Origin: Nitrospinota bacterium
GTDB lineage: Bacteria > UBA8248
DNA: 49,779 nucleotides
Direction of reading: 5' to 3'
Assembly: GCA_030754595.1 (NCBI GenBank)
Contig: JASLZZ010000122.1
Location: 1 to 49,779 of the forward strand
The notes beneath the pieces were generated by a model, which searched no databases, was not told the DNA's origin, and saw only the letters and a list, made by a program, of their open reading frames with translations. A program made the position numbers and the translations under genes. Below are positions 4,857 to 46,490 of this stretch, piece by piece (position 1 is the first letter of the stretch; every line of letters begins with the position of its first letter).

Positions 4857-6986
4857 ATGATTCAAATTGGCATCGACGCCGGGGGAACATTCACGGATTT
4901 TTGGGTGACGGAGGACTCCACCGGCCTATCTCCCGAATACGAGGGAGCCCCCCATAAAACCCCCTCGATGCCGGAGGACCCCTCCCGGGCGGTCATCCGG
5001 GGGCTCGGGGAAATCGCCGCCGCGCGGGGGGTAACCACAGGGGATCTCCTCGAAGACACCCGCCTCATTGTCCACGGTACGACCGTTGCGACCAACGCCG
5101 TCCTCACCGAAAGCGGCGCCCGGGCCGGCCTCATCACCACCCAAGGTTTCAGGGATATTCTCGAAATGCGCCGGGGCTGGCGCGAGGATTTTTTCGACAA
5201 CAAGCGGCCGCTGCCCAAACCCCTCATCCGCCGGGCGCTGCGTCGCACGGTGGCGGGCCGCCTAGATGAGACCGGGGCCGAACTCGAACCCCTCGACGAG
5301 GCCAGTGTGCGCGAGGAGGCCCTGAGGCTCAGGGCGGAAGGCGCCGAGTCGGTCGCCCTTTGCTTCATGCACGCCTGGGCGAATCCGGAGCACGAAAAGC
5401 GGGCGGCCGAGATCGTACGCGAAACGTTCCCCGAGGCGTTTCTGACCGTCTCCTCGGAACTCTTGCCCCAGATTCGCCTCTTTGAGCGAGTGAGCACCTG
5501 CGCCTTCAACGCCTATGTCGGTCCCATCATCCAAAAATATCTGGAGAAGCTCGACAGCGCGCTTCGCGGACTCGGCTTCGGGGGCGCCTTCCTCATCATG
5601 GGCTCCCACGGCGGGGTCATGACCGTCCCCGTCGCCGCGCGGCGGGCCGCTGCCTCCCTGCTCTCGGGTCCGGCCGCGGCCCCCGTCGCCGCGGGCCGGG
5701 TGGCCGCTCCGCACGGAATCGAGGACTACATCGTCACCGACATGGGCGGGACCAGCTTCGATGTCGCTCTCGTCCAGGGCGGCGAGCCCCTCGTATCCCA
5801 GGAAAACTGGCTCGGCGGCAAGCGAATCGCCCTGCCCTCGCTGGACATCCACACCCTGGGCGCGGGCGGGGGAAGCGTCGCCTGGGCCGACCGGGGGGGC
5901 ATCCTCCACATCGGCCCCGAGAGCGCCGGGGCGAGCCCCGGGCCCGCCTGCTATGGCCAGGGCGGCCTGAAGCCCACGGCCACCGACGCCTGCCTGGCTC
6001 TGGGCTATCTGGACCCCGAATATTTTCTCGGAGGAAAGGTCCGCCTCGACCCCCAAGCCGCCGTCGAGGCCATTAACCGGGGCGTCGCCGAGCCGATGGG
6101 GATGCCGGCCGAGGAGGCGGCGCTGGGAATCTACGAGTTCATCTGCGTCCAGATGGCGGCGGGAATCCGCGAGGTGACCGTCCGCTGGGGGCTCGACCCG
6201 CGCGATTTCCTGATGCTGGCGGCGGGAGGGGCGGGACCGCTTCACGCCAATCACATCGCGCGCGAGCTGGGCATCTCCCTCATTATGGCTCCCAGGGACT
6301 CGGCCGTTTTTTGCGCGGCCGGCATGCTCGCCTCGGATCTGAAGTACGATCTTGCGGTAAGCTGGCGCGCGAGATTCATGGATCTCGTCCCGGAGGAGCT
6401 GGCCGCGCGCTTCCGTGCGCTCCGGGACCAGTGCCGGGCCGTCCTCGCCGAGCAGGGAGTCCCCGGGGAGCGCATGCGGTTCGAGCCGGGGATGGACATC
6501 CGCTACATCGGCCAATACCACGAGGTCGGCGTCCCCCTGCCCACCGAGATGATCGATGCACCCGATATCGGCGGCATCCTCGGCCGATTTCACGAGCGCC
6601 ACGACACCCTCTACGGCTACGCCACTAGCGAGATGCCGGCGGAGTGCATCACGATGCGCATGAGCGCCCGCGGCCGGATGGACCGCCCCGAAACCCTTTC
6701 CCCAAAAATAGGCGAGCCACCCGCCGCGCCCCTCCCCCACGGCCGCCGGCCGATTCGCCTGCCCGGCGAGCCGCGTCGCCTCCCCGCCGATGTCTACCGG
6801 TCACTCACACCGGGGCAGCGAATCGCCGGGCCCGCCATCGTCGAGCGGCCGAACACGACCGTTCTCGTCTTGGGGGATTACGAACTCGCCTGCGACGCCT
6901 CGGGCAACTATATTATCTGGCCCGAAACCAAGTCCGGGGAGATGCGCGCCCGCTTTCTTTCTGACGCCAGGGACGACCGGGGATGA
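4857..6986 (+). CDS. Hydantoinase A / 5-oxoprolinase family ATP-binding subunit
   Basis: GIDAGGTFTD, HGTTVATNA, SGPAA, DMGGTSFD, GAGGGS, PGPACYGQGG motifs. Confidence 0.93.
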   Translation: MIQIGIDAGGTFTDFWVTEDSTGLSPEYEGAPHKTPSMPEDPSRAVIRGLGEIAAARGVTTGDLLEDTRLIVHGTTVATNAVLTESGARAGLITTQGFRDILEMRRGWREDFFDNKRPLPKPLIRRALRRTVAGRLDETGAELEPLDEASVREEALRLRAEGAESVALCFMHAWANPEHEKRAAEIVRETFPEAFLTVSSELLPQIRLFERVSTCAFNAYVGPIIQKYLEKLDSALRGLGFGGAFLIMGSHGGVMTVPVAARRAAASLLSGPAAAPVAAGRVAAPHGIEDYIVTDMGGTSFDVALVQGGEPLVSQENWLGGKRIALPSLDIHTLGAGGGSVAWADRGGILHIGPESAGASPGPACYGQGGLKPTATDACLALGYLDPEYFLGGKVRLDPQAAVEAINRGVAEPMGMPAEEAALGIYEFICVQMAAGIREVTVRWGLDPRDFLMLAAGGAGPLHANHIARELGISLIMAPRDSAVFCAAGMLASDLKYDLAVSWRARFMDLVPEELAARFRALRDQCRAVLAEQGVPGERMRFEPGMDIRYIGQYHEVGVPLPTEMIDAPDIGGILGRFHERHDTLYGYATSEMPAECITMRMSARGRMDRPETLSPKIGEPPAAPLPHGRRPIRLPGEPRRLPADVYRSLTPGQRIAGPAIVERPNTTVLVLGDYELACDASGNYIIWPETKSGEMRARFLSDARDDRG

Positions 6987-8725
6987 GCGTGAACGGCATC
7001 GACCCCATCCTCGCCTCCGTCCTCCAGCGGCGGCTGCGCTCGATCACCGAGGAAATGGCCCTCACCCTCCTTCACACCACCCGCTCGCCCATCCTCTCGG
7101 AGGGCCGGGATTTCGCCACCGGCATCTACCGGACGAACGGCGACATGCTCGAGCAGACCGAGTACACCGCGCTCCTTGGCTTCGCCCTTCAACCCTCGCT
7201 CAAGGCCTGCATCGAATATTTCGGGGACGACATCGGGCCCGGCGACGTGATCTTTCACAACGACGTTTACAACGCCGGAAACCAGATCAACGATCTGGGC
7301 GTGTTCAAACCCATTTTCCTCGAGGGCGAGCTCGTCGCGTGGGCCGCCTGCAAGGCCCATCAGGCGGACCTGGGCGGGGGCGCTCCCGGCGGCTACAACC
7401 CGGGCGCCACCGAGGTCTGGCACGAGGGCCTTCGGGTGCCGCCCCTGAAGATGTGGGCGGGCGGGAAGCTCCGCCGGGATGTCTGGGACTTTCTCCTCGC
7501 CAACACCCGCCTCGACATCGTCGCCGAGGATGCAAAGGCCTGCGCCGGCTCCTGCAACGTGGGCGAGCGGCGCGTACTCGTTGTATTGGACCGCTACGGC
7601 CGCGATGTCTTCGACCGCCATATGGACTACGTCATCGACGGCGCCGAGCGGATCATGCGGGGCGAGATCGCCGCCATGCCCGACGGTGTGTACCGGGGCG
7701 AGTCGTTCCTCGCCAACGACGGTCATCAGGAGGGCGTCCGCCACAAAGTAGTCTGCACGGTCACCATCGCGGGCGATTCGATCAAATTCGACTACACGGG
7801 CTCGGCGGGCCCGACGCCCGGCTACGCGAACGCGCCGCTTCACGCCGCGACAAGCGGCCTGATGATCGCTGTCCTGATGAACGTCAATCCGCAGATTCCG
7901 CACAACGCGGGAATTCTCCGGCCCCTCGAAATGATCTTCCCCGAGAACTCGATGCTGAACGCCAAGTTCCCCCATGCCACCAGCTACGGCAACCACCTCA
8001 CCCACCAGATATGGGAGGCCGCCGTGAAGGCGCTCGCCCAGGCGGTGCCCCACAGCGTCACCGCCGGATGGAACAAGTGCTACTGGGGGATGTCGAGCGG
8101 TCTCGACGGGCGGAGCGGCCGCCGCTACGTCGATTTTTTCCTGTTCGCGATGAAGGGGGGATCGGGAGCAACCGAAGGCCTCGACGGCTTCGCCCATCTG
8201 GGCACGGTGATGACGGGCGGGGCGATGACCGCGCAGGACCCCGAAATGCACGAGGTCCAGACCCCCCACCGCCTTCATCACTTCGAATTCGAGATCGACT
8301 CGGCCGGCCCCGGACGCTGGCGCGGCGGGCTCGGCATTCGATCAAAGTGGACGATCCTGGGCCAGGACGCCAAGGTCATCATGTTCGGCCAGCAGACCGA
8401 GCCCGGGGAGGAGCCCTTCGGCCTCTTCGGCGGTAAGCCCGCCGGTCTCAACACCGCCCACCTCACCCATCCCGACGGGCGCCAACGCTGGCCCAAGGGC
8501 CACGAAATCATTCCGGACGCGGACGGCGCGGTTATCGAGATGACCGCTTCGGGCGGCGGCGGGTACGGGGACCCGAGACTGCGGCCCGCCGACCTGATCC
8601 GGGAAGAAGTGCGCGACGAAATTATTTCAATCGAATCGGCACGGCGCGACTACGGGGTGGCGCTCGATCCCCTGACGCTCGAAATCGATGAAGAGGAAAC
8701 CGCGCGCCGTCGGAAAAGGCCTTAA
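6983..8725 (+). CDS. Hydantoinase B / oxoprolinase family subunit
   Basis: PGDVIFHNDVY, AHQADLGG, DSAGPGRWRGGLG, GGGGYGDP motifs; ATGA overlap with subunit A. Confidence 0.93.
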   Translation: MSVNGIDPILASVLQRRLRSITEEMALTLLHTTRSPILSEGRDFATGIYRTNGDMLEQTEYTALLGFALQPSLKACIEYFGDDIGPGDVIFHNDVYNAGNQINDLGVFKPIFLEGELVAWAACKAHQADLGGGAPGGYNPGATEVWHEGLRVPPLKMWAGGKLRRDVWDFLLANTRLDIVAEDAKACAGSCNVGERRVLVVLDRYGRDVFDRHMDYVIDGAERIMRGEIAAMPDGVYRGESFLANDGHQEGVRHKVVCTVTIAGDSIKFDYTGSAGPTPGYANAPLHAATSGLMIAVLMNVNPQIPHNAGILRPLEMIFPENSMLNAKFPHATSYGNHLTHQIWEAAVKALAQAVPHSVTAGWNKCYWGMSSGLDGRSGRRYVDFFLFAMKGGSGATEGLDGFAHLGTVMTGGAMTAQDPEMHEVQTPHRLHHFEFEIDSAGPGRWRGGLGIRSKWTILGQDAKVIMFGQQTEPGEEPFGLFGGKPAGLNTAHLTHPDGRQRWPKGHEIIPDADGAVIEMTASGGGGYGDPRLRPADLIREEVRDEIISIESARRDYGVALDPLTLEIDEEETARRRKRP

Positions 8726-9018: not shown

Positions 9019-9528
9019 GTGAAGAAATCCAAGGCAAGCCAAACAATAATTACCTTGAAAGAATAGGAGCGACGCAAGGAGTTTGTCGGTTTCACCGACG
9101 AAGATGTGCAACTGCTTATGGAGTATAACCAAATCGCGGAAGTCCACGCGAACGAGGTTGTGGAAAAGTTGTATCAGCACTTCCTGCGATTTGAGGAAAC
9201 AAAAGCCTTCTTCCGGGACGACATGACGCTCCTCCGTGTTACGGACCTTCAGAAAGAGTACTTCCTCGGGCTAACGAAAGGCGACTATGGCGAAGAATAT
9301 TTGGCGAACCGCCTGCGCATTGGAATCCTCCATCAGCAACTTGGCTTGTCGCCCTGCTGGTATATGGGGTCGTATTCGATTTATTTGGAGTTGGTCATTT
9401 CCTTCGTACTGGCAGCTTATGGATCTGACCTTGAGAAAGCGCGGCGAACTCTGGTGGCTTTAGTCAAGATCATCCAGTTGGACCAAGAATTGGCAATGAC
9501 GGCTTATTTATTGTCCCCACTCCCGTAA
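9019..9528 (+). pseudogene. Protoglobin / globin-coupled-sensor globin domain with an in-frame TAG at 9064-9066 (intact ORF 9106..9528)
   Basis: ERRKEFVGFTDEDVQLL, LYQHFLRFEET, LQKEYF, RLRIGILHQQLGL, WYMGSY, IQLDQELAMTAY are typical sensor-globin features. The frame is open from GTG 9019 except for one TAG. Lower GC than the flanks. Confidence 0.65.
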
Positions 9529-9615: not shown

Positions 9616-10050
9616 TCAGGATGAAACCAGCGGGCCGCCGTACAGGCGGTGCTCGACCATGATTCAAAGATCCATGACGACCTTGAGGCCCGCCCGCTCG
9701 GCGCGGGCCGCGGCTTCCTCGTCGATGACGCCTTTTTGGAGCCAGATCGCCCGCGCCCCGGCGGCGATGGCTTCGTCCACCACCCCGCTCACGAAACGAC
9801 TCCGCCGGAAAACGTTCACCATCTCGGGGGGCTCGGGCAGCGCGGAGAGCCGGGGATAGCACCGCTCGCCGAGGAGTTCATCGTGACCGGGATTGACGGG
9901 AACAATCTCGTAGCCCGCCTGTTGCATGTAGACGCTCACGTAATGGCTGGGCCGGTGTTCCTTGGGCGAGAGACCCACCACGGCGATGCGCCGGAACTCC
10001 CGGAGCACCTGCCGGACGGCCCCTGAATCCTGAAAATCGGCGCCGCTCAT
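9616..10050 (-). CDS. YccU-family CoA-binding protein, predicted selenoprotein (TGA 9664-9666 = U129)
   Basis: IAVVGLSPK, IVPVNP, VFRRS, WLQKG motifs. The frame continues past the TGA as VVMDL-U-IMVEHRLY, versus the family pattern VVMDRCxxxEH. Confidence 0.8.
9629..9653 (-). promoter_or_regulatory. Candidate bacterial SECIS of the CoA-binding protein gene
   Basis: AGC-A-CCGCC-[UGUAC]-GGCGG-CCC-GCU hairpin; loop begins at +20 after the UGA. Confidence 0.5.
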
Positions 10051-10880
10051 TCGCTTATTTCTGCCTCCGGGGTCCGGTGGTCGCTTACTTCCCACTCCCT
10101 CAAATGGTCCCGGAGCGATTCGGGGCTGTCGGCCGCGCCTAAAAACGCGGCCACGGCCTCCTCGTCGGTATCGTAGAGCGGATAGCACGACGCCGGGGCC
10201 GCCCCGCCGGGCAGGTGGACCACCGCGTCCACCATGAACCCCGGTATATTCGTCCGCTCGGGTTTGTCCTCGAAAAACTTCGTCTCGACGATGCGCTCGG
10301 CGGTGAGGATGACGCCCTCGGAGGCCCGGGAGAGGAGCACATCCTCGAACGGGCCGCCGTCGATCCGCGCATTGCCGGCCGCGTCGGCGTGCTGAACGTG
10401 GACCACCGCCCAGTCGGGCCGGATTTTGGGGATCATGTAAACGCTCTTCCCCGTGTAGGGGTCCTCGGCCTGGAGGAACCCCGAGCTCGCCGGGGTGTCC
10501 GAGCCGTCGAACCCCGAGACCGGCTGGCTCGGAAGCCCATAGGCCGAGGCGCGCAGGCCCGCGATCACGCTGTAGCAGGCGTGCTCCACCACCCGGATTT
10601 CCCCGCTCTCGACCCCGCGCCGGTAGGAGGGCGCCATGCCGAAGAGGTTTTCGTAGCCGATGTAGCCCGCCCGCACCTCGGCCACCGCCCCCGCCGCGCA
10701 GAGGAGATCGATCTCGTAGGCCCCCGCCGTTTTAATCATGATGAGATTCCGGCGGCCCTGACGCGCAAGCTCGCGGGCGAAGGCCGACGGGGTGCGCGAG
10801 AGCGAATTGCCGCCCAGCGCGATCATCTGACCGTCCCGGACGAGGCCGCCGGCCTCTGAGAGAGATATCAGCTTGCTCAC
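10047..10880 (-). CDS. Family I CoA-transferase-fold alpha subunit (GctA/IpdA-like), Cys102 paralogue
   Basis: DLLCAAG, EHACYSVIAGLRASAYGLP, DPYTG, RPDWAVVHVQHADAAGNARI, VDAVVHLPGGAAP motifs; AGGAGG RBS before the GTG. Confidence 0.9.
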   Translation of the reverse strand: MSKLISLSEAGGLVRDGQMIALGGNSLSRTPSAFARELARQGRRNLIMIKTAGAYEIDLLCAAGAVAEVRAGYIGYENLFGMAPSYRRGVESGEIRVVEHACYSVIAGLRASAYGLPSQPVSGFDGSDTPASSGFLQAEDPYTGKSVYMIPKIRPDWAVVHVQHADAAGNARIDGGPFEDVLLSRASEGVILTAERIVETKFFEDKPERTNIPGFMVDAVVHLPGGAAPASCYPLYDTDEEAVAAFLGAADSPESLRDHLREWEVSDHRTPEAEISE

Positions 10881-10940
10881 ATTTCCTCCTGTCGCGCCGG
10901 CCGGGCTAGCAGCCCAGGCTGGGCTAGCAACCCCGCCCAG

Positions 10941-11711
10941 TTAGCGCTCCACCCGGCGAAGCGCGGCGAACTCCGAGTAACGCACCCCCTCGGGATCGAT
11001 CTCGGCGAGGGCGGAGAGTTCATCCCCCGTAGGCGGGATTGTCACGGGTATTTCAGCACCCAAATCGAGCGGAAAACCCGTCCGCCCGGCCACCTCTTCC
11101 ACCGAAACGCCCGGATGAACGCTCCCCAGCTCAAGACCCTCATCGCGCATCTCCATCACGGCCAGCGGAGTGACCACCCGCGCCAGGTTGCCCGACTGGG
11201 TGACGAAATCCACCTTCTCGACAAAAGTGCGCCGGTCGTGCACCACCCGCCATATCACGATCCGCCGAGCCTGCTCCATGATGACCGACCCGCCCCCGCC
11301 TCCGGGCAGGCGAACCTTTGGGGCGGACGGCTCGCCGATGTAGCTCATGTTCACGCGGCCCGCCTTGTCGATCTGTGCGCCGCCCAGGTACATGAGATCG
11401 ACCCCGCCCCGCGCGAAAAGATCGTAGGCGTCGGCGTTCGAGAAGATCGCCGCCGCCCCCTGGCACAGTGCCGGATCGTTCGTGCTGAAGGGCAGCCGCT
11501 CGGGCCTCGGGTCCACAGAGCCGGCCACCTCGATGAGAACGCTCCCCGGCGCATGCAGCTTTTTTGCGAGAAAAATCGCCACCATCGGAAGCGGGGAGTT
11601 CACGCCGTGAAAGACGCGCTCGCCCTCGCGCAGCTCCCGGGCCAGGCAGACGGCCATTTGATCCGCCGCATCGCGCGCGGCCTGAATTTCGCTTTCCGTT
11701 TTCAAGGTCAT
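10941..11711 (-). CDS. Family I CoA-transferase-fold beta subunit (GctB/IpdB-like)
   Basis: LHAP, LGGAQIDKAGRVN, RLPGGGGG, TFVEKVDFVT, VVTPLAVM, SVHPGVS...TGF motifs. Confidence 0.9.
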   Translation of the reverse strand: MTLKTESEIQAARDAADQMAVCLARELREGERVFHGVNSPLPMVAIFLAKKLHAPGSVLIEVAGSVDPRPERLPFSTNDPALCQGAAAIFSNADAYDLFARGGVDLMYLGGAQIDKAGRVNMSYIGEPSAPKVRLPGGGGGSVIMEQARRIVIWRVVHDRRTFVEKVDFVTQSGNLARVVTPLAVMEMRDEGLELGSVHPGVSVEEVAGRTGFPLDLGAEIPVTIPPTGDELSALAEIDPEGVRYSEFAALRRVER

Positions 11712-11715
11712 TTGA

Positions 11716-12525
11716 TCATACCTGTAGATACGTCTCGGCTTCGGCGAGATATTCGGCGAGACCGTCCGCCGTTCGGGAAACCTCCATGTAGCGGCGCATC
11801 CTCGCCTCGTCCACTCCGTAGGCCGGCGAGCAGCTGCAGGGCGCGGCCCCCCCCGGCGCATGAGCGACGGCGGCCACCAGGAAGCCGGGAATGGCCGTCA
11901 TCTCGGGCTCCTCTCTAAAGCGCTCGGCGGGCGCCAATTTCTCGGCGGTGACGATGACCCCCTTCGCCGCGCGCATCATTTCGATATCGAAATATCGCGG
12001 GCCGTAGATGCGCGCGTTCCCCTCCCCGTCGGCTTCGTGGACGTGGATGATAGCCCAGTCGGGACGGAGCGCGGGGATGGCGTACAGCGTTTCGCCGGTG
12101 TACGGGTCATCGATGGTTTGGATTCCGCTGCGCTCGGGGATATCGCTTCCCTTGAACCCGCGCAGGGGCTGGAAGGGGTTGCCGTAGGCTGCGGCCCGCA
12201 GCCCCGCGAGGATGCTCGCTCAGGCGTGCTCGGTCAGCCCGGCCAACCCCTTTTCGATGGACCGACGGTAGTTCGGGGCGAGGCCGTAGCTGGCCTCGAA
12301 GGTGACGATTCCGCTCAGGACCCGGCCCAGCGCCCCCGCCGCGCAAAGGAGGTCGGCGTCGTAGCCCGGAGAGGGTTTGATGAGGGTGAGATTCTTCCGT
12401 CCGGCGCGGGCCAGCTCGTGAAGAAGGGTCGAGGGCGCGCGGTGGAGCAGGCTTCCGCTCGTGGAGATGGCTTCCCCGTCCTTGATCAGTCCCGCGGCCT
12501 CGGCCACCGTGATTAATTTCATCAT
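11716..12525 (-). CDS. Family I CoA-transferase-fold alpha subunit, predicted selenoprotein (TGA 12220-12222 = U102), 269 aa
   Basis: ORFs 12220..12570 and 11716..11979 share one frame, separated by a single TGA. Readthrough gives LTEHA-U-ASILAGLRAAAYGNPFQP...DPYTG...RPDWAIIHVHEADGEGNARI, colinear with the paralogue at 10047..10880. Confidence 0.82.
12187..12203 (-). promoter_or_regulatory. Candidate bacterial SECIS of the alpha-subunit gene
   Basis: GGCUGC-[GGGCC]-GCAGCC perfect 6-bp stem; loop at +23 after the UGA; not maintained in the Cys paralogue. Confidence 0.5.
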
Positions 12526-12619: not shown

Positions 12620-13884
12620 TCAACCGGCTAATAAACCCGCCGCACAACCGGCCACCGGTTCGGCGAAGGCCGGGGCCGGCTCCTCGCTGATGGCCCAACT
12701 CATCCCCGCCGCGACGAAACAGATCATGGCGGACGCCAGAAAAATCGGCTGATAGTTCCCCCAGAGGTCGTGAACGAGTCCTCCGGCATAGGCGCCCGCC
12801 GCCGAGCCAATCTGGTGGCTCAAAAAAACGAGGCCGAACACCGTGCCGCCCGAGCGGTTCCCGAAAAGAGTGGTCGAGAGAGCCGTGGTGGGGGGTACGG
12901 TCGCGAAATCCACCAGGCCGAAGGCCACCTCGAATACGAACAGCATCACCGGATCGCTGACGAACATGAGGAAAAAAAGCGATACCGCGCGCCCCACGTA
13001 AATCCAGCCCAAAAGCCTTTTGTGCCCCCAACGGTCCGAGATCGCTCCGGAGATGAGAGTCCCCAACGCGTTAAACGCCCCGAGCGTTCCGAAGGCCGTG
13101 GCGGCGGTGAAGGTGTCGATGTGAATTTCCTCGGCATAGGGAATCAGGTGCGTTTCGATGAGACCCGCCGTCGTGAACCCGCAAATCCCAAAACTGCCGA
13201 TGAGCCACCAGAAATTCACCTCCCGGGCGATCCGGGCAAGAGGATGCGGACGCCCCCCCTCCCCCTCGCGGGGTTGCTCCCCTCTCACCACCTCCGGCGG
13301 ATCGTCCCTGAAGAAAAGCAGGAATATAGGAACGGCGATGAACAGCACGGCCGCCCCGGACCAGAAGTAGGCCGTCCGCCAGCCGTAGCGTTCCATGAAC
13401 GCCGCGAAAGCGGGCAATAATATGAGCTGGCCGGCGGCTCCTCCGGCGGCGACTACGCCGACTGCGAACGCCCGGTTCCGGCTGAACCATCGGGAGATCG
13501 CCACCGCCGCGGTCACGTTGGCCGAGCCTCCGGCCGCCAGCAACAGCCCGCCCCCGAACACGAGGTAGACGTGCCAGAGACTCTGGATGAACCCCATCGC
13601 CACGGTGAATACGGCCATTAAAATAAAGCTGCCCACGAAAACCACCCGGGGGCCATAGATATCGGCCCAGCGCCCCGAAATCGCCCGGGCGAGGCCATTG
13701 CTCAGAAACCCGATGGACCCCACCAGGCTGATGGCCGCCCTGTCCCAGCCAAACTTCACCTCCCAAGGCCGTATCAGCAGGCCGAATGTGGAGCGAACCC
13801 CCATCGGAATGGCCATGGCGAGGAAGCAAAGCGCACGATCACCCAGGCGTAGGAACTTTCGCGCTCATCCGCTTGATTCATCAT
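12620..13884 (-). CDS. MFS transporter with an apparent 1-nt frameshift near 13834
   Basis: GRWADIYGPR and GAISDRWGHK MFS loop motifs. The N-terminus MMNQADERESSYAWVIV (ATG 13884, with RBS) is out of frame by one base with ALCFLAMAIPMGVRSTFG. Confidence 0.85.
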
Positions 13885-29235: not shown

Positions 29236-30672
29236 CTAGGCCCGGACGTCCTTGCTGACGGCACCCTCGCCCCTCGACCCGCTGGCGGCCGCCGTCTGCG
29301 ACGCCGCCACCAGCGACATCACTTCCTCGGTGCTCTCCAAGCTCTCGAGCGAGCGCACCCGCTCGACTATTCGCCGCCGCGTCTCCTCGTCCGCCACCGG
29401 CCCCGTCAGGTCGTGGAACCGCTCGATCAACTCCTCCCAGGAGAGCGGATTGCGCGGGTCCCCCTTCGGGTTGTCCTGGTGACCCTCGAAGCTACCCCGC
29501 CGCGTGACGATTTTTACGTGCGACTGCCACTCGCCCGGGAATTTCTTCTCGAGCTCGGGGTCCCCATAGCACTGAATCCGATCGATAATCGACGAGTAGA
29601 CGCGCGAGCGCAGGAAATCGTCCGTGTACTCGTCGAGCCCCGCCTTCCGCCTCAGGAGGGCGACGGCGACGGCGTATTGAAGGCTGAACTGCGCGTCCAC
29701 TACATTTTGCGGGTTCACCTTGATGTCGTTGGGCTCGACAACCACCATCACCGCCGTCTCGGGTACGCGCACCTCGACGCGCGACACCTCCTCGGGCTGG
29801 ATATCGTTTTCGCGGCAAAGGCGGATAACCAGATCCACCGGACCGTGGTTGTAGCGGCAGGTGGCGTAGGGCTTGATCGCCGACTCGCAGATCTCCCAAT
29901 ACTCGCCCAGCCGCTCGGTCACGAACTCGGGATGGGCGTCGTCGCTGAAGGCGTGGAGAAAACCGTACTTCCCCTCGAGAATATCCTCGGGCCCCGTGTA
30001 GCCCTCCTGGGCCAGATAGGCGGCGATGATTCCGCCGTGGGCCGCCCAGCCGGGGTGAAGGCGCTTCGTCCACGAGCCGGTTTCGAGGAACTGCATCGAG
30101 CTGGACGCCTGGCTGCCCGCGATGCCAAAAGCGTTCGAAGTAGCCTCCCGCGAGAGGCCGAGGATCTTCGAGGCCACCAGGGAGGCGGCGAAGGTGCCGC
30201 AGGTGCCCGTGGGGTGAAAACCCCGCTCGTAGTGGCTCGTCGGGTTAAGTGCGTTGCCCACCCGGTTCGTCACCTCGTAGCCGGCGACGATGGACTCGAT
30301 CACCCGCTTGGGGTCGGTGTTGTGCGCCTCGGCGGCAGCCAGGGCGGCCGGCATGACGCTCACCGCCGGGTGAAGACTCGAGCGCGTCGTCACGTCGTCC
30401 ATCTCGATGGCGTGGCCCACGCCTCCGTTCGCCAGCGCGGCGCTCGGCGCGTCGGTTCGAAGCGGGGTCCCGACAACGGTGCACGGGCCTTCCTTGGGCG
30501 CGCGCTTTTTGACGAAATTGTGAAATACCCGCGAGCTTCCGGCCTCGCAGGCCCGGAGCGTCACCCCCAGGTAATCGAGAAGAAAATACTTGGCCCGGTC
30601 GCGGGCCTCCTCGGGAAGGGAGTCGTACCTGATCGCGTGAACATGATCGAGCAACTTTTGCGTGATACCCAT
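29236..30672 (-). CDS. MmgE/PrpD family protein
   Basis: HAIEMDD, SLHP, GFHPTG, KRLHPG, IKPYATCR, AQFS. Confidence 0.93.
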   Translation of the reverse strand: MGITQKLLDHVHAIRYDSLPEEARDRAKYFLLDYLGVTLRACEAGSSRVFHNFVKKRAPKEGPCTVVGTPLRTDAPSAALANGGVGHAIEMDDVTTRSSLHPAVSVMPAALAAAEAHNTDPKRVIESIVAGYEVTNRVGNALNPTSHYERGFHPTGTCGTFAASLVASKILGLSREATSNAFGIAGSQASSSMQFLETGSWTKRLHPGWAAHGGIIAAYLAQEGYTGPEDILEGKYGFLHAFSDDAHPEFVTERLGEYWEICESAIKPYATCRYNHGPVDLVIRLCRENDIQPEEVSRVEVRVPETAVMVVVEPNDIKVNPQNVVDAQFSLQYAVAVALLRRKAGLDEYTDDFLRSRVYSSIIDRIQCYGDPELEKKFPGEWQSHVKIVTRRGSFEGHQDNPKGDPRNPLSWEELIERFHDLTGPVADEETRRRIVERVRSLESLESTEEVMSLVAASQTAAASGSRGEGAVSKDVRA

Positions 30673-30955
30673 CGCGGGGCTCCTTGGGTTAATCATTAGG
30701 GCAATCAATCGATTCGGCAGTCAATCGACTTGGCGAAATGCGGACCGAAGGCGGCCTCCACCGGCCCGCGCGCTCGTGATGATGACCCGGTATTATGCCC
30801 CGAAAAAGGGCGCGCCGGGAAACCCGCCAGCCCCGGGGATTCCATCCCGGGAATTCCATCCCGGAGAATTCTTCCCGGGAAAATCTTGTCAACCGCCGCC
30901 GCGCGGGGGTATGATCGCTCCGCCGCCCGCCGAACCCCCACAACCGAGGCCTCAG

Positions 30956-33516: not shown

Positions 33517-33909
33517 ATGGAAAGGTTACCGAAGCGAGAAGCGAGGGAGTTGGCAGACAGGTTATTCAAGGACGGCGCCTATCGGCCCACGGATCATATG
33601 TATGAGATGGGCAATGAGCGCGATATCGATCTCCTTGACGTTGGCCATTGCCTTGAAAATGGAGAAATTTTTGATGAACCGGCCTTCGATAAGCCGCACA
33701 AAGAGTGGCGCTACACAATTCGGGGGCCGGATATCGATGGTGAGGAAATCTCGGTAATCGTATCGTTTGAGGAATTTGAAGGTGAAACCGTCGTGATTAT
33801 CACCGTAAAAAGAAAGGGAAAAAGAACCTACGCTGTTTGGGTACATCATTGGAGGGAGGCCCGAGGATGGCAATTAAATGCCGGGAATGCGGAGAGGAAG
33901 CCAAACTGA
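33517..33909 (+). CDS. DUF4258-domain protein, putative type II toxin
   Basis: TDHM...ERDI...DV...LENG...WRYTIRG...VIITV pattern. Confidence 0.75.
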   Translation: MERLPKREARELADRLFKDGAYRPTDHMYEMGNERDIDLLDVGHCLENGEIFDEPAFDKPHKEWRYTIRGPDIDGEEISVIVSFEEFEGETVVIITVKRKGKRTYAVWVHHWREARGWQLNAGNAERKPN

Positions 33910-34367
33910 TTAAAGGTAAATATCATTGGAAGGAAGTTGGTCTCGATAACGTCTATCTCGAAGGGGAAGGCGTGAAGCAGTGGGAGTGCGCCAATGGGCA
34001 TAAGACCGTCCAGATAAATGCCGTGGGGCATTTGCTCAAGGTGCTTGCCGGGGCCGTAGCGAAGAAACTGGATCGCTTAACCGGAAAGGAAGTCCGGTTC
34101 CTGCGGAAGTCCATTAAAATGCGGGCAAATAAAATGGCAGCCCTGCTCGGAATGCGGCCCGAGTCATACTCGAAGATCGAAAATGGCCACGATGAAGTCG
34201 GAAGCCGCGTCGATCGGATGGTTCGCCTTGTCTACCGCGACCCGGAGGATGTCGAGGCTATCCTTATGGCTCTGACGGATGTACAGAAAGATACGGAAGG
34301 GTCCTGGGATATGACTGCCCCACTTGCTGGGCAGGGGGAGCCGGTTGCGGCCTACGCGGTTGCTTGA
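33867..34367 (+). CDS. MqsA-like antitoxin (zinc ribbon plus XRE HTH)
   Basis: CRECG...GLDNVYL...ECANGH; LTGKEVRFLRK...AALLG....YSKIENG. Confidence 0.8.
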   Translation: MAIKCRECGEEAKLIKGKYHWKEVGLDNVYLEGEGVKQWECANGHKTVQINAVGHLLKVLAGAVAKKLDRLTGKEVRFLRKSIKMRANKMAALLGMRPESYSKIENGHDEVGSRVDRMVRLVYRDPEDVEAILMALTDVQKDTEGSWDMTAPLAGQGEPVAAYAVA

Positions 34368-34510
34368 AAACTTGAGACACAGTGCCTGAAATTCGGCCTG
34401 GGGCACGGGGCTTGTTTCACCCCTTAGTGTAGAGTCCGTAGTCCCAGCAACCTTGCAGACGTTTCCTGCGAGGCAAAGGGAAAAGAGGATGAGTTGGCGG
34501 AGGAATTCTC

Positions 34511-35524
34511 TTGGCGTCTGGCCCCAGAAGGCATCACTATCCTCCACGTTTTTACTTGAACGGTTTTTCACGCGACGACCTTCTTTGGATTTGTGACTGC
34601 GAATTAAACGAAATTAGACAGCAAACCCCTATAAATACTGCCGTCGAGAGAGATTATTACTCCATAGAGGATGAGGACGGAAACAGAAACAATGCTGTCG
34701 AGGAGTATCTTTCTACAGTTGAAGATAAAGCCAGAACTGCTATCCAAAGGCTTGAAGCAGGAGAAAATCTCAACGACGACCTAAGAACTCACCTTTCCAT
34801 CTTCATGGCCCTTCTGCTCACTCGAACGCCAGTATTCGAGGGCGTTTTTAACGAGCATACTCAGGGCAAGCTCCGGACTCTTTTAAAAGAAATGCTCTCA
34901 GATACAGAAAAAGCGAAAATACACTTTCAGGATTTTGCCAAAAAAACCGGAGAGGAATTGCCGGTCACTCCTGAAAAGTTGGTGGAATTTGTTTCCGACG
35001 ACAAGAATTACGAAATCGATATTCACCCCGTTGCGAGAATACACTCAATGTTGGCAGCTGTGGATTCAATACATCTTAAATTTTTTGAACTTCGATGGAA
35101 TATCCTTCACGCGCAGAGAGATACTTCCTTTCTTTGTTCGAACAACCCCTGCGTTATTTTGTTTCATCCAAGAGATACTCCTGGTAAAAATGCACCGATT
35201 CACGGAACTATAAAGGGCATGAACAATCCGGGCGGTCGAGTCTTGACCCCCCTTAGCCAAAAAATCGCTCTGCTGATGCTTCAATCCGGAGATTACTTAA
35301 GACATAGACGGTATCCGGTCATGGGAGTACGAAGCGCGAACTTGGGCATGAGTATGGGATTTCGCAGATTTCTAATTGCGAGAGATGAGGCATTGTTACG
35401 ATCCGTGCTTAAAAAACAAAAATACGTCAAGGATAATTTGCATTCACAGGCAGGAGAGGATGGGTGGACGGCATACAAGGCCTTAAAAGACATCATTTCT
35501 GCCCTTAAGTGGGGTTTGAGGTAA
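34511..35524 (+). CDS. DUF4238-domain protein
   Basis: RRHHYPPRFYLNGF N-terminal motif, DYYS, LLTRTP, FLCSNNP; low GC. Confidence 0.8.
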   Translation: MASGPRRHHYPPRFYLNGFSRDDLLWICDCELNEIRQQTPINTAVERDYYSIEDEDGNRNNAVEEYLSTVEDKARTAIQRLEAGENLNDDLRTHLSIFMALLLTRTPVFEGVFNEHTQGKLRTLLKEMLSDTEKAKIHFQDFAKKTGEELPVTPEKLVEFVSDDKNYEIDIHPVARIHSMLAAVDSIHLKFFELRWNILHAQRDTSFLCSNNPCVILFHPRDTPGKNAPIHGTIKGMNNPGGRVLTPLSQKIALLMLQSGDYLRHRRYPVMGVRSANLGMSMGFRRFLIARDEALLRSVLKKQKYVKDNLHSQAGEDGWTAYKALKDIISALKWGLR

Positions 35525-35621: not shown

Positions 35622-37010
35622 TCAGGGCGCGAGCAGCGGCATTAACTCTCCGACGTCGGTGGCGGCCTCCATCCCCCGCCAGCCCTCCCAGGCCGCCCGG
35701 GCCCGCTGTTCCGAGAGCAGGACGCCGGCGCACTCCAGAAACTTTTCGCGGAACTCGGCCTCGGGGATCGGGTTGTCGATGTGGCCCCGCGCGATCTCGC
35801 CGATGGCCGCGACCTCGCGCCCGTCCCTCAAACGGACCCAGACCGCCGTCCGTTCGCTCTCGGGGTCCTCGGCGGCCAGCTCCGGGTCGAGTTCGAACTC
35901 GACCCGATCCTGAAGCGCCCGCACCTCGGGCCGGGCGACCCGGTCCTCCTCGAACTGCGCGATTCCCACCTTGCCGTCGAGGACGGCGGACGAGAGGCAA
36001 AACGGCATCGAGAACTTCCCCTCGAGGCCGGTCGTGGCTTTTTGGTAGCGGAGCACCTTGAGGGTCATCGCCGAGGCCCGCGCGCCGAGCGTCTCGACCT
36101 CCTCCGGGCGGATGCCCTCGCGCTCGCAGAGATCGAGCATGGCGTCGATGCCCGGATGCGTCATCGCGCAGCAGGGGTGGATCTTGACGCAGACCCCCGC
36201 CTCGATGTCCCAGGGCTCGCCCCAACCCGAAACCGCCGCCTCCCAGCCGGCGAAGTTCTCAACGCCGGGGCCGATGCCCTCGGCGGCCATCGCGCCGGCG
36301 TAGCCCGTCTCAAGAGCATCATAGGCGGCGGTGAAACCCATCTCGGCCAGACGCGCGGCGACGAGCCCCGCCCGGGCGGCCTGCCCGGCGTGAAAGGGCT
36401 TGGTCATGGTGCCGAAGTTGCACACCAGCCCCGCCGCCTCGCTCGCGGCGAGGGCGAGGGCGTTCGCGGTCTCCTTGGCGCCCAGGCCCATCAGGTGGGC
36501 GCACGCGCCCGCCGCGCCGACCGACCCAAGGGTGGAGGTGGCGTGAAACCCCCGGCGGTAGTGGTTGGGCAAAAGCGCCCGGCCCAGGGTGTGAAGAAGC
36601 TCGAAACCCACTGCGTAGGAAGCGAGCACCGCCGTGCCACTCAACCGGCGCTCCTCGGCGAGGGCGATGAGTGCGGAGACGAGGGTGACGCTCGGGTGGC
36701 CGGTCATCACGAAGTCCACGTCGTCGAAATCGAGGGCGTGGCCGGCGACCCCGTTGACGAAGGTGGCCCAGCTGGCCGAGGTCCGCCCGCCGCCGCCGAG
36801 GACCGTCGCGGCCTCGCCGCCGCCCTCCTCGCGGGCGAGGCGAAGGGCAAGGCGGGCGCTCTCGTCGGGCATCCCGGCGAGCGTGACCCCTAGGGTGTCC
36901 ACCACCGCCTCTCGGGCGCGGGCGAGCGCGGCCGGGCCGATGTCGCGGGCCCCGGCTATCCGCCGGGCAAGCTCGCGGGTGGCGGGCCAGGGACGCTGAC
37001 TGTTGTTCAC
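35622..37010 (-). CDS. MmgE/PrpD family protein (second, divergent copy)
   Basis: HALDFDD, GHPS, GFHATS, FGTMTKPFHAG, KIHPCC, EGKFS. Confidence 0.93.
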   Translation of the reverse strand: MNNSQRPWPATRELARRIAGARDIGPAALARAREAVVDTLGVTLAGMPDESARLALRLAREEGGGEAATVLGGGGRTSASWATFVNGVAGHALDFDDVDFVMTGHPSVTLVSALIALAEERRLSGTAVLASYAVGFELLHTLGRALLPNHYRRGFHATSTLGSVGAAGACAHLMGLGAKETANALALAASEAAGLVCNFGTMTKPFHAGQAARAGLVAARLAEMGFTAAYDALETGYAGAMAAEGIGPGVENFAGWEAAVSGWGEPWDIEAGVCVKIHPCCAMTHPGIDAMLDLCEREGIRPEEVETLGARASAMTLKVLRYQKATTGLEGKFSMPFCLSSAVLDGKVGIAQFEEDRVARPEVRALQDRVEFELDPELAAEDPESERTAVWVRLRDGREVAAIGEIARGHIDNPIPEAEFREKFLECAGVLLSEQRARAAWEGWRGMEAATDVGELMPLLAP

Positions 37011-42678: not shown

Positions 42679-42953
42679 CTATGTTCTCTCCATCTCCATG
42701 ATAAGGACTGTGAACTACACTTCGCCGGACGGGGATGCACTTTACTCTATGCGCCTCGCCGAAAAAAGGGTTGGACAAATCTCCCGGATACTCTACGATT
42801 GAACTGCTCCGGGCGGACCTGCCCGGACCCGAATCAAATCCTGCCACTATTTTGTTTCCCTGCGATTTTCGATATTCTGGACAGCCTTACCGGCGCGAAA
42901 CCGGGTAAGTGCCGCCAAGAACGGCGGCGCGCGCCCCGCGGAGGAACCAGGGA

Positions 42954-44066
42954 ATGAGCGGCACGAAAGCCGAAACATCCGGTAGCCCCGTCACTCGAGA
43001 GGATCTCGCCCGTCTCGACTATTTCGAGGATCTGCGGGATCGCTACCTCTCCATCGAAAGCCTCGACGCCCGGTGGCACCCCATCGACCAGGCCGATCTT
43101 ACCTCTGATCGCGACACCTGCATGCGCATCCATCACCTGATCTCACTCACGCGGTCGGTCGAGGAAACGCTCGACTCCGCCTTTCGATCAGGCCACGTAC
43201 CGGGAACCGCGTTTTTCGGCCGGGGCAACGAGGCAGCGAGCGTGGCGAGCGCCGCCTGCCTCGACGATGAGGAGTGGCTCATTCCCATGCACCGAAACTG
43301 TGGGGCCCACATCGCCAAGGGACACCCCCCGGTCAGCATCATGGCCCATTTTTTTGGGCGCGCGGGGGGGCCCTCATCCGGACGCGACGGCAATTTCCAC
43401 ATGGGCTACCGCCCGAGGAAAATTACACAGCTCATCAGCCATATCGGCACCATGGTCCCCATCGCGGCCGGGGTCGCCTGGGCCGAAAAACTCCGGGGCC
43501 AGGGGCGCGCCGCTCTCACCTACATCGGCGACGGCGGCACGAGCGCGGGCGATGTTCACGAGGGGATGAACTTCGCGACAGTTCAAAAACTCCCTCTCGT
43601 CATAATCATCGATAATAACCAGTACGCCTATAAAACGCTTCTCAAAGAGCAGTTCGCCTGTGAGTCGCTCGTCCTCCGGGCGCCGGGATACGGAATGCCC
43701 GGATATCTGGTCGACGGAACCAACGCCCTGCTCATGCACAAAATCTGCGGCGAGGCGCTCGAGCGCGCCCGCGCGGGCGAGGGACCCACCCTCATCGAAA
43801 GCGTCACCATCCGTGCCGTGGGCCACTCGGTCTACGACAAGTACTCCGACTACGTTGACATGGAGCTGCTCAACCGCTGGAACGAGGAGCGCGATCCGGT
43901 CAAGCGACTCGACGCGTACCTCCTCGCCGGCGGCATCGCGACCGAAGACGAAATTGGAGAATCCCATGTGCGCGCCAGAAAAGAAGCCGAGGAGGCGCGC
44001 GAAGAAGCGCTGAAAATGCCCTTCCCCGATCCGGAGAAGGTGGAGGACGACGTTTATGCGCCCTGA
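42954..44066 (+). CDS. 2-oxoacid dehydrogenase E1 alpha subunit
   Basis: GRDGNFH, GDGG...NN ThDP motif, GEGPTLIE, RAVGHS. Confidence 0.92.
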   Translation: MSGTKAETSGSPVTREDLARLDYFEDLRDRYLSIESLDARWHPIDQADLTSDRDTCMRIHHLISLTRSVEETLDSAFRSGHVPGTAFFGRGNEAASVASAACLDDEEWLIPMHRNCGAHIAKGHPPVSIMAHFFGRAGGPSSGRDGNFHMGYRPRKITQLISHIGTMVPIAAGVAWAEKLRGQGRAALTYIGDGGTSAGDVHEGMNFATVQKLPLVIIIDNNQYAYKTLLKEQFACESLVLRAPGYGMPGYLVDGTNALLMHKICGEALERARAGEGPTLIESVTIRAVGHSVYDKYSDYVDMELLNRWNEERDPVKRLDAYLLAGGIATEDEIGESHVRARKEAEEAREEALKMPFPDPEKVEDDVYAP

Positions 44067-44090
44067 AGGGTTTTGCAGGGGCAGGAGACC

Positions 44091-45089
44091 ATGAGCCAAA
44101 TAACTTACCGAGAGGCCATTAGCACCGCCCTGTGGGAGGAGATGGAGCGCGACGAGACTATCCTCCTCGTAGGGGAGGATATCGGTCTCGGCGGCGGCGC
44201 CTTCTATATCACCAAAGGCTTTCAGGAGCGCTTCGGACGTGGCCGTGTGGTGGACGCCCCTCTCAGCGAAGCCGGCTTCACCGGGGCGGCCATCGGTGCC
44301 GCCCTGAACGGAATGCGGCCAGTCGTCGAGTTCCAGTTCGCAGACTTCGTGACCGAGTCTTATAAAATGATAGTCGATTTCGCCGCCGGAAATCACTACC
44401 GCCAGATGGGACCGGTGCCCATCGTCTTTCGACTTCCGGCGGCGGCGCTCACGAGCGCGGGCCCATTTCACAGCCAGAACCCCGAGCCCTGGTTCTTCGG
44501 CGCACCGGGCCTCAAGATTGCCGCGCCCGCCACCGCCTACGACGCCAAGGGAATGATGAAAACCGCCATCCGGGACAACAATCCCGTCCTCTTCCTCGAG
44601 TATAAGAAACTCTATAACTATCCGATCGACGACCTGCCCGAGGCCCTCCGGCCCGACGTTCCCGAAAGGGACTACACTGTCTCATTCGGCGAGGCGCGGG
44701 TGCTCCGCGAGGGAAGCGACATTTCCCTCATCACCTTCGGCACGAGCGTCATCGACGCCCTCGAGGCGGCGGTGATTCTGGGAGCCGAGGGAGTCGAGGT
44801 CGAGGTGATCGATATGCGCACCATTCTTCCCTTCGATAAAAAAGCGATTCTCGACTCAGTAGAAAAGACGGGAAAGCTCCTCATCCTCCACGAAGCACGG
44901 CTCCGGGGAGGGGTAGCGGGAGAGTTCGCCTCGATCGTGGCCGAGGAGGCCTTTGAGTCGCTCGACGCCCCAATCCGGCGGTTGGGTGGGCTCGACACTC
45001 CGGTTCCGATGAGCCCGCCCCTCGAAAAAGCGTATCTGCCCGGAACCGAAAAGGTGGCCGCCGCGCTGAGAGAGCTGGCCGCCTACTAA
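44091..45089 (+). CDS. 2-oxoacid dehydrogenase E1 beta subunit
   Basis: GEDIG, DAPLSE, PVVEFQFADF, HSQ, SVEKTG. Confidence 0.94.
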   Translation: MSQITYREAISTALWEEMERDETILLVGEDIGLGGGAFYITKGFQERFGRGRVVDAPLSEAGFTGAAIGAALNGMRPVVEFQFADFVTESYKMIVDFAAGNHYRQMGPVPIVFRLPAAALTSAGPFHSQNPEPWFFGAPGLKIAAPATAYDAKGMMKTAIRDNNPVLFLEYKKLYNYPIDDLPEALRPDVPERDYTVSFGEARVLREGSDISLITFGTSVIDALEAAVILGAEGVEVEVIDMRTILPFDKKAILDSVEKTGKLLILHEARLRGGVAGEFASIVAEEAFESLDAPIRRLGGLDTPVPMSPPLEKAYLPGTEKVAAALRELAAY

Positions 45090-45161
45090 GACGTCGGGCG
45101 GGAATCGTTCCCGGCTTCATTGTTTTTTATCTGTCCGGGAATCTTCATCTGGAGGACAGCC

Positions 45162-46484
45162 ATGCACCAGGCGAACGTGAGAATGCCCCAGATGGGCAGC
45201 AGCGTTCACGAGAGCACTGTCGTTGAGTGGAAAAAATCGGTGGGCGACCGGGTGCAAAAAGGCGATCCGTTACTTTCTGCCGAGAGTGATAAGGTCGAAT
45301 TCGAGATCGAATCGCCAGCTAACGGGGTGGTCAAGGAAATTCTAGTGGTTCCGGACACCACCGTTCCAGTCGGAGAGATATTAGCCATCCTCGAAACCGA
45401 GGAGGAAATCTCAGAGGAGGCGCAGGAAGCGCCTCAGCCCTCGGGCCCGCCGAAGGCAACCGTGTGGGTGGCACCCGTCGCCCCGATCCGGCGCGAAAAG
45501 CCCGGACCGGCGGCAACGGCCGCACCCCCGCCGCCCTCACCGCTATTTCGGCGAACCGTCCCGGACACCGCCGTTGGTAGTCTGCTCTCCCCCCGCGTCC
45601 AGCGGCTAGCCGCCCAGCACGGGATCGATCTCGGCGTGCTCTCCCGGATTCAGGGATCCGGGGCCGGTGGCCGTCTCACGGCGCGCGACCTTGAGCGCTT
45701 CATTTCCGAAGGCGTCGAGGGCGAGCCTCCGTCCGTCTCGCTTTTGTTCTCGCCCATCACCCAGGACCCGGAAGAGACGCTCGAGTCGCGGGAACCCTTC
45801 AATCGCCTCCGGAGGCGAATCGCCGAGAATCTGACGCGCTCGGTGCGCGAAATTCCCCAGGTGACAACTTTCCTCGAAATCGACATGAGCCGCGTCGCCG
45901 CCTGGCGCGACGCCAACAAGGATGAATTTCGAAAGACCCACGAAAACACGCTCACCTTTACACCCTTTTTCGCCCTCGCCATAATCGCGGCACTACGGGA
46001 CCCCGAAAACGCGCGCCTTAACGGAGCCTGCGAGGATGGAACCCTCATCATCAAGCGCTATGTCAATCTCGGCGTCGCCGTGGACATACCCGGGGGCCTC
46101 ATGGTCCCAGTCCTCGCCGGGGCCGACGGCCTGGGCTTCGTGGACCTCGCCCTGCGGCTGTCCGATCTCTCAGAGCGCGTCCGCTCGGGAACATTGGAGC
46201 CCGATGAGGTAAGAGGAGGAACCATCACCCTGACCAACTTCGGCGCCTCGGGCGCGATTTTTGGAAACCCGATCATCAACCCCCCCGAGGTCGCCATCGT
46301 CGGCGCCGGAGCCGTCGCCCCCCGTGCGGTGGCGCTTCCGGGCGGCGGAGTCGGGGTCAGGCCCACCATGGGCCTATCCATCACGTTTGATCACCGCGCC
46401 AACGATGGAATGGCCGCGGGACGCTTCGCCGCCTCGATTAGGGCGGCGCTCGAAGGAATGGACCTCTCTCAACTGGAGTACTAA
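45162..46484 (+). CDS. Dihydrolipoamide acyltransferase E2
   Basis: Lipoyl ESDKV, SPRV..GSG.GGRL subunit-binding motif, PIINPP, FDHR. Confidence 0.93.
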   Translation: MHQANVRMPQMGSSVHESTVVEWKKSVGDRVQKGDPLLSAESDKVEFEIESPANGVVKEILVVPDTTVPVGEILAILETEEEISEEAQEAPQPSGPPKATVWVAPVAPIRREKPGPAATAAPPPPSPLFRRTVPDTAVGSLLSPRVQRLAAQHGIDLGVLSRIQGSGAGGRLTARDLERFISEGVEGEPPSVSLLFSPITQDPEETLESREPFNRLRRRIAENLTRSVREIPQVTTFLEIDMSRVAAWRDANKDEFRKTHENTLTFTPFFALAIIAALRDPENARLNGACEDGTLIIKRYVNLGVAVDIPGGLMVPVLAGADGLGFVDLALRLSDLSERVRSGTLEPDEVRGGTITLTNFGASGAIFGNPIINPPEVAIVGAGAVAPRAVALPGGGVGVRPTMGLSITFDHRANDGMAAGRFAASIRAALEGMDLSQLEY

Positions 46485-46490
46485 ACCGAC

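Follow-up and report, generated by a model that had tools for sequence, protein, structure and literature searches.

The closest described relatives of the system reported here are two-subunit enzymes of the coenzyme A (CoA)-transferase fold. In GctAB (PDB 1poi) and other family-I CoA-transferases, which match PF01144 and carry a glycine-rich motif in beta, the covalent catalyst is a Glu of the beta subunit; in CtfAB, transfer depends on a carboxylate at this canonical site, and changing the Glu to Ser abolishes activity (PMC12400318). AibA/AibB of Myxococcus xanthus (3-methylglutaconyl-CoA decarboxylase; PDB 5mzw-5n03) is a nontransferase that acts on an acyl-CoA made elsewhere and has the canonical beta Glu replaced, with AibB Cys56 standing in place of the catalytic Glu of glutaconate CoA-transferases (PMC7756340), and IpdAB (COCHEA-CoA hydrolase of cholesterol ring opening in Mycobacterium and Rhodococcus; PDB 6co6, 6co9, 6coj, 6con) also lacks the canonical beta Glu, its catalytic residue lying in alpha. 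Here, we describe a related four-gene operon, alpha1-beta1-alpha2-YccU-like, in a contig of 49,779 nucleotides (nt) from a Nitrospinota bacterium (UBA8248; GenBank assembly GCA_030754595.1, contig JASLZZ010000122.1, analyzed in full and herein referred to as the window). Two of its genes, alpha1 and the gene of a YccU-like CoA-binding protein, each contain one in-frame TGA that behaves as a selenocysteine (Sec) codon, and sequence comparison supports, in outline, the placement of alpha1-beta1 as a distinct, Sec/Cys-dependent branch of the GctAB/AibAB/IpdAB group.

The preliminary description of this DNA reported four tightly packed minus-strand genes, and the coordinates (9616-12525) agree with the gaps and overlap given there: alpha1 and beta1 are separated by 4 nt and beta1 and alpha2 by 60 nt, and alpha2 overlaps the YccU-like gene in an ATGA. 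The codon positions likewise bear out the two alpha paralogues with TGA versus TGC at residue 102. The operon and the elements within it are as follows (aa, amino acids; SECIS, selenocysteine insertion sequence):

11716..12525, minus strand: alpha1, CoA-transferase-fold alpha subunit of 269 aa with predicted Sec at residue 102; PF01144, 70 bits
12220..12222, minus strand: in-frame TGA at codon 102 of alpha1, read as Sec102 (UGA)
12187..12203, minus strand: SECIS-like hairpin of alpha1, 6-bp stem GGCUGC/GCAGCC with loop GGGCC, nt +20 to +36 from the U of UGA
10941..11711, minus strand: beta1, partner beta subunit of 256 aa; PF01144, 72 bits
10047..10880, minus strand: alpha2, Cys102 paralogue of alpha1, 277 aa, GTG start, TGC at codon 102 (10577-10575)
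9616..10050, minus strand: YccU-like gene, single-domain CoA-binding protein of 144 aa with predicted Sec at residue 129; PF13380, 148 bits
9664..9666, minus strand: in-frame TGA at codon 129 of the YccU-like gene, read as Sec129 (UGA); the gene ends 15 codons later
9635..9649, minus strand: SECIS-like hairpin of the YccU-like gene, 5-bp stem CCGCC/GGCGG with loop UGUAC, nt +18 to +32 from the U of UGA

In Pfam, alpha1, beta1 and alpha2 all match PF01144 (CoA_trans) at 70-78 bits, and the YccU-like protein matches PF13380 (CoA_binding_2) over profile positions 1-116 of 116; NCBIfam release 20 holds no fitting model and gave below-threshold matches only for all four operon proteins.

The assignment of Sec to codon 102 is very strongly supported by conservation, and alpha1 is, on this evidence, a genuine selenoprotein gene. 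A search of 41 related genomes recovered 19 alpha1 orthologues with exactly one TGA (identity 60-100%), all of them in the taxonomic family of the window's genome, and the TGA falls at codon 102 in 19/19; mean protein identity to the window sequence is 0.71 downstream of the TGA versus 0.75 upstream. In a public survey of a collection holding one genome per species, 80 loci yielded 82 alpha alignments that cover codon 102, which is TGA in 75, TGC in five and TGT in two (a sample skewed towards alpha1-like sequences, since the search patterns were derived from alpha1). Forty-seven of these TGA forms are only 48-54% identical to alpha1 and come mostly from metagenome-assembled genomes labelled Burkholderiales/Betaproteobacteria. 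Full-length protein-database homologues have Cys at this position without exception (115/115; motif E-(H/N)-A-C), and five further database entries of 150-167 aa, 72-82% identical, are C-terminal fragments, as would be expected where gene callers stop at the TGA.

The hairpin that follows the alpha1 TGA is the RNAalifold consensus over the 19 orthologues, among which two variable positions preserve pairing or fall in the loop. Codons 108-115, which contain this hairpin, have a mean codon entropy of 0.28 versus 1.25 for the other invariant-residue codons, the lowest window in alpha1. The 47 distant Sec forms have an invariant hairpin of their own in the same place (GGCUG/loop CGUG/CAGCC) while neighbouring synonymous sites vary, and the seven Cys forms of alpha have no such hairpin. 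Thermodynamic stability was tried as a marker of the hairpins and dropped, the 66-nt stretches after the two TGAs having z-scores of only -0.4 and -0.9, which are ordinary for their G+C content; conservation was hence used as evidence instead. The hairpins originally proposed after each TGA are therefore retained as elements conserved at synonymous sites in both genes, though not as unusually stable structures.

For the YccU-like gene the evidence is consistent with that for alpha1 and thinner, as it comes from one genus, and its assignment as a genuine selenoprotein gene can be called well supported. The TGA is present in 5/5 genomes of the genus (protein identity 78-99%), and the 11 codons that follow it encode an identical IMVEHRLYGGP throughout, with 7/7 nucleotide differences synonymous, before the tails diverge. 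HMMER aligns Sec129 with the Cys of a C-terminal (D/N)RC motif in PH1109 (2d59), 2duw and others, and the alignment continues past it; TT1466 is a further solved relative. The full-length match to this group (YccU/PH1109/TT1466, PF13380) and the kept position of the C-terminal motif are thus the likeness, whereas Sec replaces the Cys in this genus, where the gene is also translationally coupled to alpha2. Among 57 public YccU-like loci, 55 of which are readable at this position, TGA occurs only in two, both from this genus, and Cys in 51 of the 53 readable loci of other genera. The hairpin is kept in 5/5 genus genomes with a sole change, C to U, in its loop.

The Sec machinery that any such reading presupposes is encoded in the genome (3.55 Mb, 138 contigs, 60% G+C): selA (496 bits), a SelB wing domain in a 639-aa frame on the same contig as selA (71 bits), selD (345 bits) and one tRNA-Sec with anticodon tca. 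The selD gene itself has one in-frame TGA (contig C16:24543-25505, locus L004) and probably encodes a Sec-containing selenophosphate synthetase. Nor are the TGAs private to this assembly: the same codon recurs in the orthologues, and contigs from other studies (X15; X16/X17, apparently one data set) cover both TGAs and show no difference at either. A 191-base metatranscriptome contig (library X18) spans the alpha1 TGA (window 12100-12290) without differences and a second X18 contig matches window 9907-10057, again without differences, DNA carry-over being possible for both; RNA-library contigs cover 4/30 bins, too little for an expression level, and two further RNA runs with small shares (X19, X20) were set aside. 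That the TGAs are real stops, left by pseudogenes, split genes or assembly errors, would agree with the annotation pipelines having called the orthologues as fragments only. This is exceedingly improbable given TGAs kept in 19/19 and 75/82 sequences from two phyla by label, coding conservation that is equal on both sides of the alpha1 TGA, purely synonymous change after the YccU-like TGA, hairpins conserved in Sec forms only, complete Sec machinery and unchanged contigs from other runs. The in-frame TGAs hence behave as Sec codons at Cys-equivalent positions, kept in orthologues and replaced by Cys in homologues, as first proposed.

What kind of enzyme carries Sec102 can be approached through the solved relatives, which for alpha1/beta1 are, in order, AibA/AibB, GctAB and IpdAB. 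AibA/AibB is the best solved match (E 1.5e-31 / ~3e-31), and IpdA is homologous to alpha1 by sequence (E 1e-25 to 1e-28) at low identity. As aligned, the Rhodococcus IpdA chains 6co6_A (E) and 6coj_A (A) are distinguished by a single residue, which is the one opposite Sec102; AibA has Gly and GctA has Ser there. In the beta subunit, Val62 of beta1 aligns without a gap with AibB Cys56 (HMMER, among the five best alignments listed, GctB not being one of them), and beta2, described below, and the partners of all other branch members have Ile or Val at that position, so that the canonical catalytic Glu was not found at the aligned site in this branch. The PGGGG motif, which we take to be the thioester-binding glycine motif of the CoA-transferase family, is invariant in the beta subunits of the branch. 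The preliminary description had posited a CoA-transferase fold without its usual Glu and with Sec/Cys at an active-site position; both points hold up, the former through the Val or Ile opposite AibB Cys56 and the latter through alignment with the IpdA Glu that is changed to Ala in the variant structure. The branch thus keeps the fold, and probably the CoA site, without the transferase catalyst and with an invariant thiol/selenol at the position of the IpdA catalyst. It shares with IpdAB the alpha/beta fold, a beta without the canonical Glu and a candidate catalytic residue at the same position of alpha, this being Glu in IpdA and Sec or Cys here; the steroid-catabolic context of IpdAB was not found near the operon, whose neighbours are MFS, RidA, SDR and HyuAB genes (CMD-, RraA- and UxaA-like genes in relatives). 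From AibAB it differs in having Val62 for AibB Cys56 and Sec/Cys for the Gly of AibA, and from GctAB in lacking the covalent catalyst at the beta site.

One residue before the canonical beta site, beta1 has a Glu (Glu61) that is found in 27/27 beta1 of the window's family among the public loci and in 12/13 sequences of alignment A2, and this residue, together with the retained PGGGG motif, could make alpha1-beta1 of this lineage a true CoA-transferase in which Sec102 is an accessory for redox regulation or substrate positioning. We regard this as very unlikely. Outside the window's family, the Glu61 position holds Asn in all 41 of the Sec loci and one of Asn, Thr and Ser in the Cys loci, and Sec/Cys at residue 102 is invariant there too, so the conserved chemistry cannot rest on Glu61; the beta of genome G009, which is of the four-gene type and is the exception in the window's family, has Ser; and HMMER sets Val, not Glu, against AibB Cys56 without a gap.

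We hypothesize instead that both genes encode selenoproteins and that alpha1-beta1 acts on an acyl-CoA via residue 102 without CoA transfer, with alpha2 and the YccU-like protein in the roles set out below; overall, we hold this to be the probable explanation, with some reserve. UGA in both genes would be decoded as Sec by SelB at the hairpin ~20 nt downstream, and an alpha1-beta1 heterodimer would bind an acyl-CoA produced by another enzyme, and the residue-102 selenolate or thiolate would act on its acyl portion, either as a nucleophile or by shuttling protons. We prefer a retro-Claisen-type reaction in which a C-C bond of a beta-keto or unsaturated acyl-CoA is cleaved by way of an acyl- or alkyl-selenium intermediate, because the equivalent IpdA residue drives ring opening and selenium is favoured as nucleophile and leaving group, its usual advantages; an AibAB-like decarboxylation with residue 102 as proton donor, or an addition-elimination isomerisation, would be alternatives. 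In this genus, alpha2 has been relocated behind alpha1-beta1 and coupled to the YccU-like CoA-binding protein, in which Sec has taken the place of the C-terminal Cys; a selenosulfide formed there might perhaps let the protein hold CoA or deliver it. In 27 of the 52 loci outside the window's family, a gene for an acyl-CoA ligase or a family-III CoA-transferase occurs no more than 3 kb away, which fits an enzyme working on a CoA ester supplied by a neighbour, like AibAB and IpdAB.

A number of points weigh against this hypothesis. The specific reaction is a guess, as no member of the branch has an assigned function, and selenium mostly serves redox chemistry, which an acyl-CoA reaction of this kind does not invoke. 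The E/A residue of IpdA is one that we take to be the catalytic Glu105 of the ring-opening hydrolase, both number and role being our assumption, and the closeness of Sec102 to the thioester site follows from the alignment to IpdA only. The near-invariant Glu61 lies one residue before the canonical site, a one-residue alignment slip is possible in this lineage, and the hairpins are, as noted, of ordinary stability. Within the window's family, a CoA ligase or family-III transferase lies within 3 kb in 0/28 loci, which weakens the case for a neighbour-supplied CoA ester in this lineage; the conserved neighbours of alpha1 there are AhpD/CMD-like (24/28 loci), RraA-like (24/28) and UxaA-like (19/28) genes, which as families act on free acids.

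In a redox alternative, selenosulfides would arise between CoA and residue 102 or Sec129 of the YccU-like protein, or between these two residues, in a reductive cleavage like that of glycine/proline reductase or in the handling of CoA disulfides or persulfides. It would agree with most selenoproteins being redox enzymes, with the CoA-binding nature of the YccU family and its near-invariant Cys at the Sec129 position, with the AhpD/CMD-like gene being the commonest neighbour of alpha1 in the window's family, and with the CoA-disulfide reductase selenoprotein that a 2026 inventory lists (PMC13188914). The alpha subunit, however, has no second conserved Cys near residue 102 (Cys61, Cys230 and Cys232 vary among homologues), no reductase or flavoprotein is conserved beside the alpha1-beta genes in the surveyed neighbourhoods, and the link to a Sec-containing YccU-like protein is limited to one genus; we hence judge a redox role unlikely. 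The fullest form of the acyl-CoA hypothesis, a widespread CoA-transferase-fold enzyme in which selenolate has taken the place of carboxylate, which cleaves or rearranges an acyl-CoA by way of a covalent acyl- or alkyl-selenium intermediate and which, in this marine lineage, is teamed with a selenosulfide CoA carrier, as the first selenoenzyme of acyl-CoA metabolism, we put forward as a doubtful extension.

The two alphas around a single beta had been read as selenium-replete and selenium-starved alternates, or as co-subunits that share that beta in a complex with the YccU-like protein. Indeed, the operon's only beta sits between both alphas in this genus, alpha2 is translationally coupled to the YccU-like gene by the ATGA overlap, and the order alpha1-beta-alpha2-YccU is shared by all five genus genomes and by a single genome from a different genus, whose contig is truncated. 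Conservation of the four-gene order thus extends to the genus and that one genome and fails beyond them. Other genera carry alpha1(Sec)-beta1 and alpha2(Cys)-beta2 as two operons at different places: beta1 follows alpha1(Sec) in 17 of the 18 related loci (the contig ends in the 18th), and alpha2 is paired, at 18 loci in those genera, with a beta2 that shares 43-54% identity with beta1, the pair lying between scpA/scpB and the gene of a pfkB kinase. The window's genome itself retains an intact beta2 without alpha2 at this ancestral locus (scpB-scpA / beta2 / pfkB; contig C13:2799-3551), and because beta2 remains there, it is alpha2 that was moved.

The two alphas are, moreover, only 49% identical and lie in different well-supported clades. 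In a quick, unrooted maximum-likelihood tree of 100 alpha sequences (with locus L047 counted as Cys at position 102), the Sec forms of the window's family (19 rows; Shimodaira-Hasegawa-like approximate likelihood ratio test (SH-aLRT) support 100) and those of Burkholderiales (18 rows; SH-aLRT 96) form separate clades within one larger group that also holds Cys forms, and alpha2 falls in the other half of the tree; the topology requires two Sec/Cys changes. The separate operons of other genera and the orphan beta2 indicate that the two alphas belong to paralogous enzymes and are not simple alternates, and the shared-beta arrangement is weakened to the point that we think it quite unlikely. Our acyl-CoA hypothesis accordingly treats alpha2 apart from alpha1: by orthology it corresponds to the alpha2 subunit of a distinct alpha2-beta2 enzyme, and it may pair either with beta1 or, in trans, with beta2. 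A complex prediction of alpha2, beta1 and residues 1-128 of the YccU-like protein (Sec tail omitted) gave a score of 0.00 (mark 0.32) and bears neither way. At the ancestral locus, the ~780 nt that include alpha2 in relatives are replaced by ~270 nt in the window's genome, and the first 5 kb of contig C13 have a G+C content of 0.47-0.54 versus 0.60 for the genome.

By these results, the alpha1 family is a widespread, apparently undescribed selenoprotein family. Like known bacterial selenoproteins, it combines a TGA opposite Cys with a normally spaced hairpin whose loop contains G or GU, and the Sec machinery is present; the fold and the presumed area of acyl-CoA metabolism differ from the families in the inventories examined. 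The text of the 2026 review (PMC13188914), which describes its table as the most comprehensive inventory, was searched and lists neither PF01144 nor PF13380, nor any CoA-transferase or CoA-binding protein, its three occurrences of "CoA" belonging to other proteins. Neither family is mentioned in the main texts of the BSepDB and deep-Sep papers, supplements aside. Full-text literature searches, with Haft and Tolstoy 2025 and Deng et al. 2026 outside their coverage, returned no described Sec or Cys CoA-transferase-like enzyme, and a literature search on YccU, PH1109 and YneT gave unrelated results only. The supposition that the arrangement had gone undescribed is thus upheld for the inventories and literature searched.

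If true, the alpha1 Sec family, present in Nitrospinota/Tectomicrobia-labelled and Burkholderiales-labelled genomes, has been hidden by the truncation of its members by gene callers; dozens of public genomes annotate these genes split or truncated. Selenoproteins described so far are almost always redox enzymes, often of thioredoxin-like fold; a widespread Sec/Cys family built on the CoA-transferase fold would bring selenium biochemistry into thioester metabolism. Where the transferases use a Glu of beta and IpdAB a Glu of alpha, it would represent a third mode of catalysis for this fold. The abundance of natural Sec/Cys pairs would allow the benefit of selenium in nonredox catalysis to be tested directly, and the YccU-like protein would be a second, lineage-specific candidate selenoprotein.

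Two genes upstream of alpha1 complete the immediate context:

12620..13816, minus strand: major facilitator superfamily (MFS) transporter; PF07690, 215 bits
13991..14443, minus strand: RidA/YjgF-family protein; PF01042, 74 bits

The MFS protein is weakly like oxalate/formate and monocarboxylate transporters, with all NCBIfam matches below their cut-offs. These genes had been suggested to supply substrate and clean-up, a role that their distribution speaks against: the MFS gene lies beside alpha1 in three of the five genus members (G000, G001 and G002), the RidA gene upstream of it in three (G000, G003 and G004), and neither does so in other genera.

Elsewhere in the branch, the AhpD/CMD-like gene is divergent from alpha1(Sec) in other genera (L030:7993-8544; also L024, L026, L028 and L032) and weakly matches the NCBIfam model "YciW-related (seleno)protein" (83 bits; cut-off 310). 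The Burkholderiales Sec loci often include a Lyase_1 protein, an alpha/beta-hydrolase and TctC receptors; in L095, L116 and ~20 more loci with this label, the Sec alpha-beta genes occur with Lyase_1/ADSL-like, alpha/beta-hydrolase and family-III CoA-transferase genes, a set reminiscent of lactone or muconate catabolism that could point to the substrate.

Around the operon itself, a HyuA/HyuB pair (window 4857-8725, plus strand) resembles caprolactamase subunits most closely (628 and 373 bits, under the 1000-bit cut-offs in both cases) and converges on the operon in each of the five genus genomes, which hints that the same pathway may include an ATP-dependent opening of a lactam. A protoglobin gene (window 9106-9528, plus strand; PF11563, 104 bits) separates the convergent HyuB and YccU-like genes; in the other four genomes of the genus it was not found at the syntenic position, only ~30-80 nt lying there between HyuB and the YccU-like gene, and it is likely a recent insertion. 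Two short-chain dehydrogenase/reductase (SDR) genes diverge from the operon. The window as a whole is rich in genes of organic-acid and acyl-CoA metabolism, with two MmgE/PrpD-family genes, a 2-oxoacid dehydrogenase E1/E2 set and an HpcH/citrate-lyase-beta-like gene at 29239-30708, 35625-37010 and 42909-47411. A segment at 33560-35524, which holds a DUF4238 gene (34511-35524), has a third-position G+C content of 0.45-0.61 versus ~0.8 and is possibly foreign DNA.

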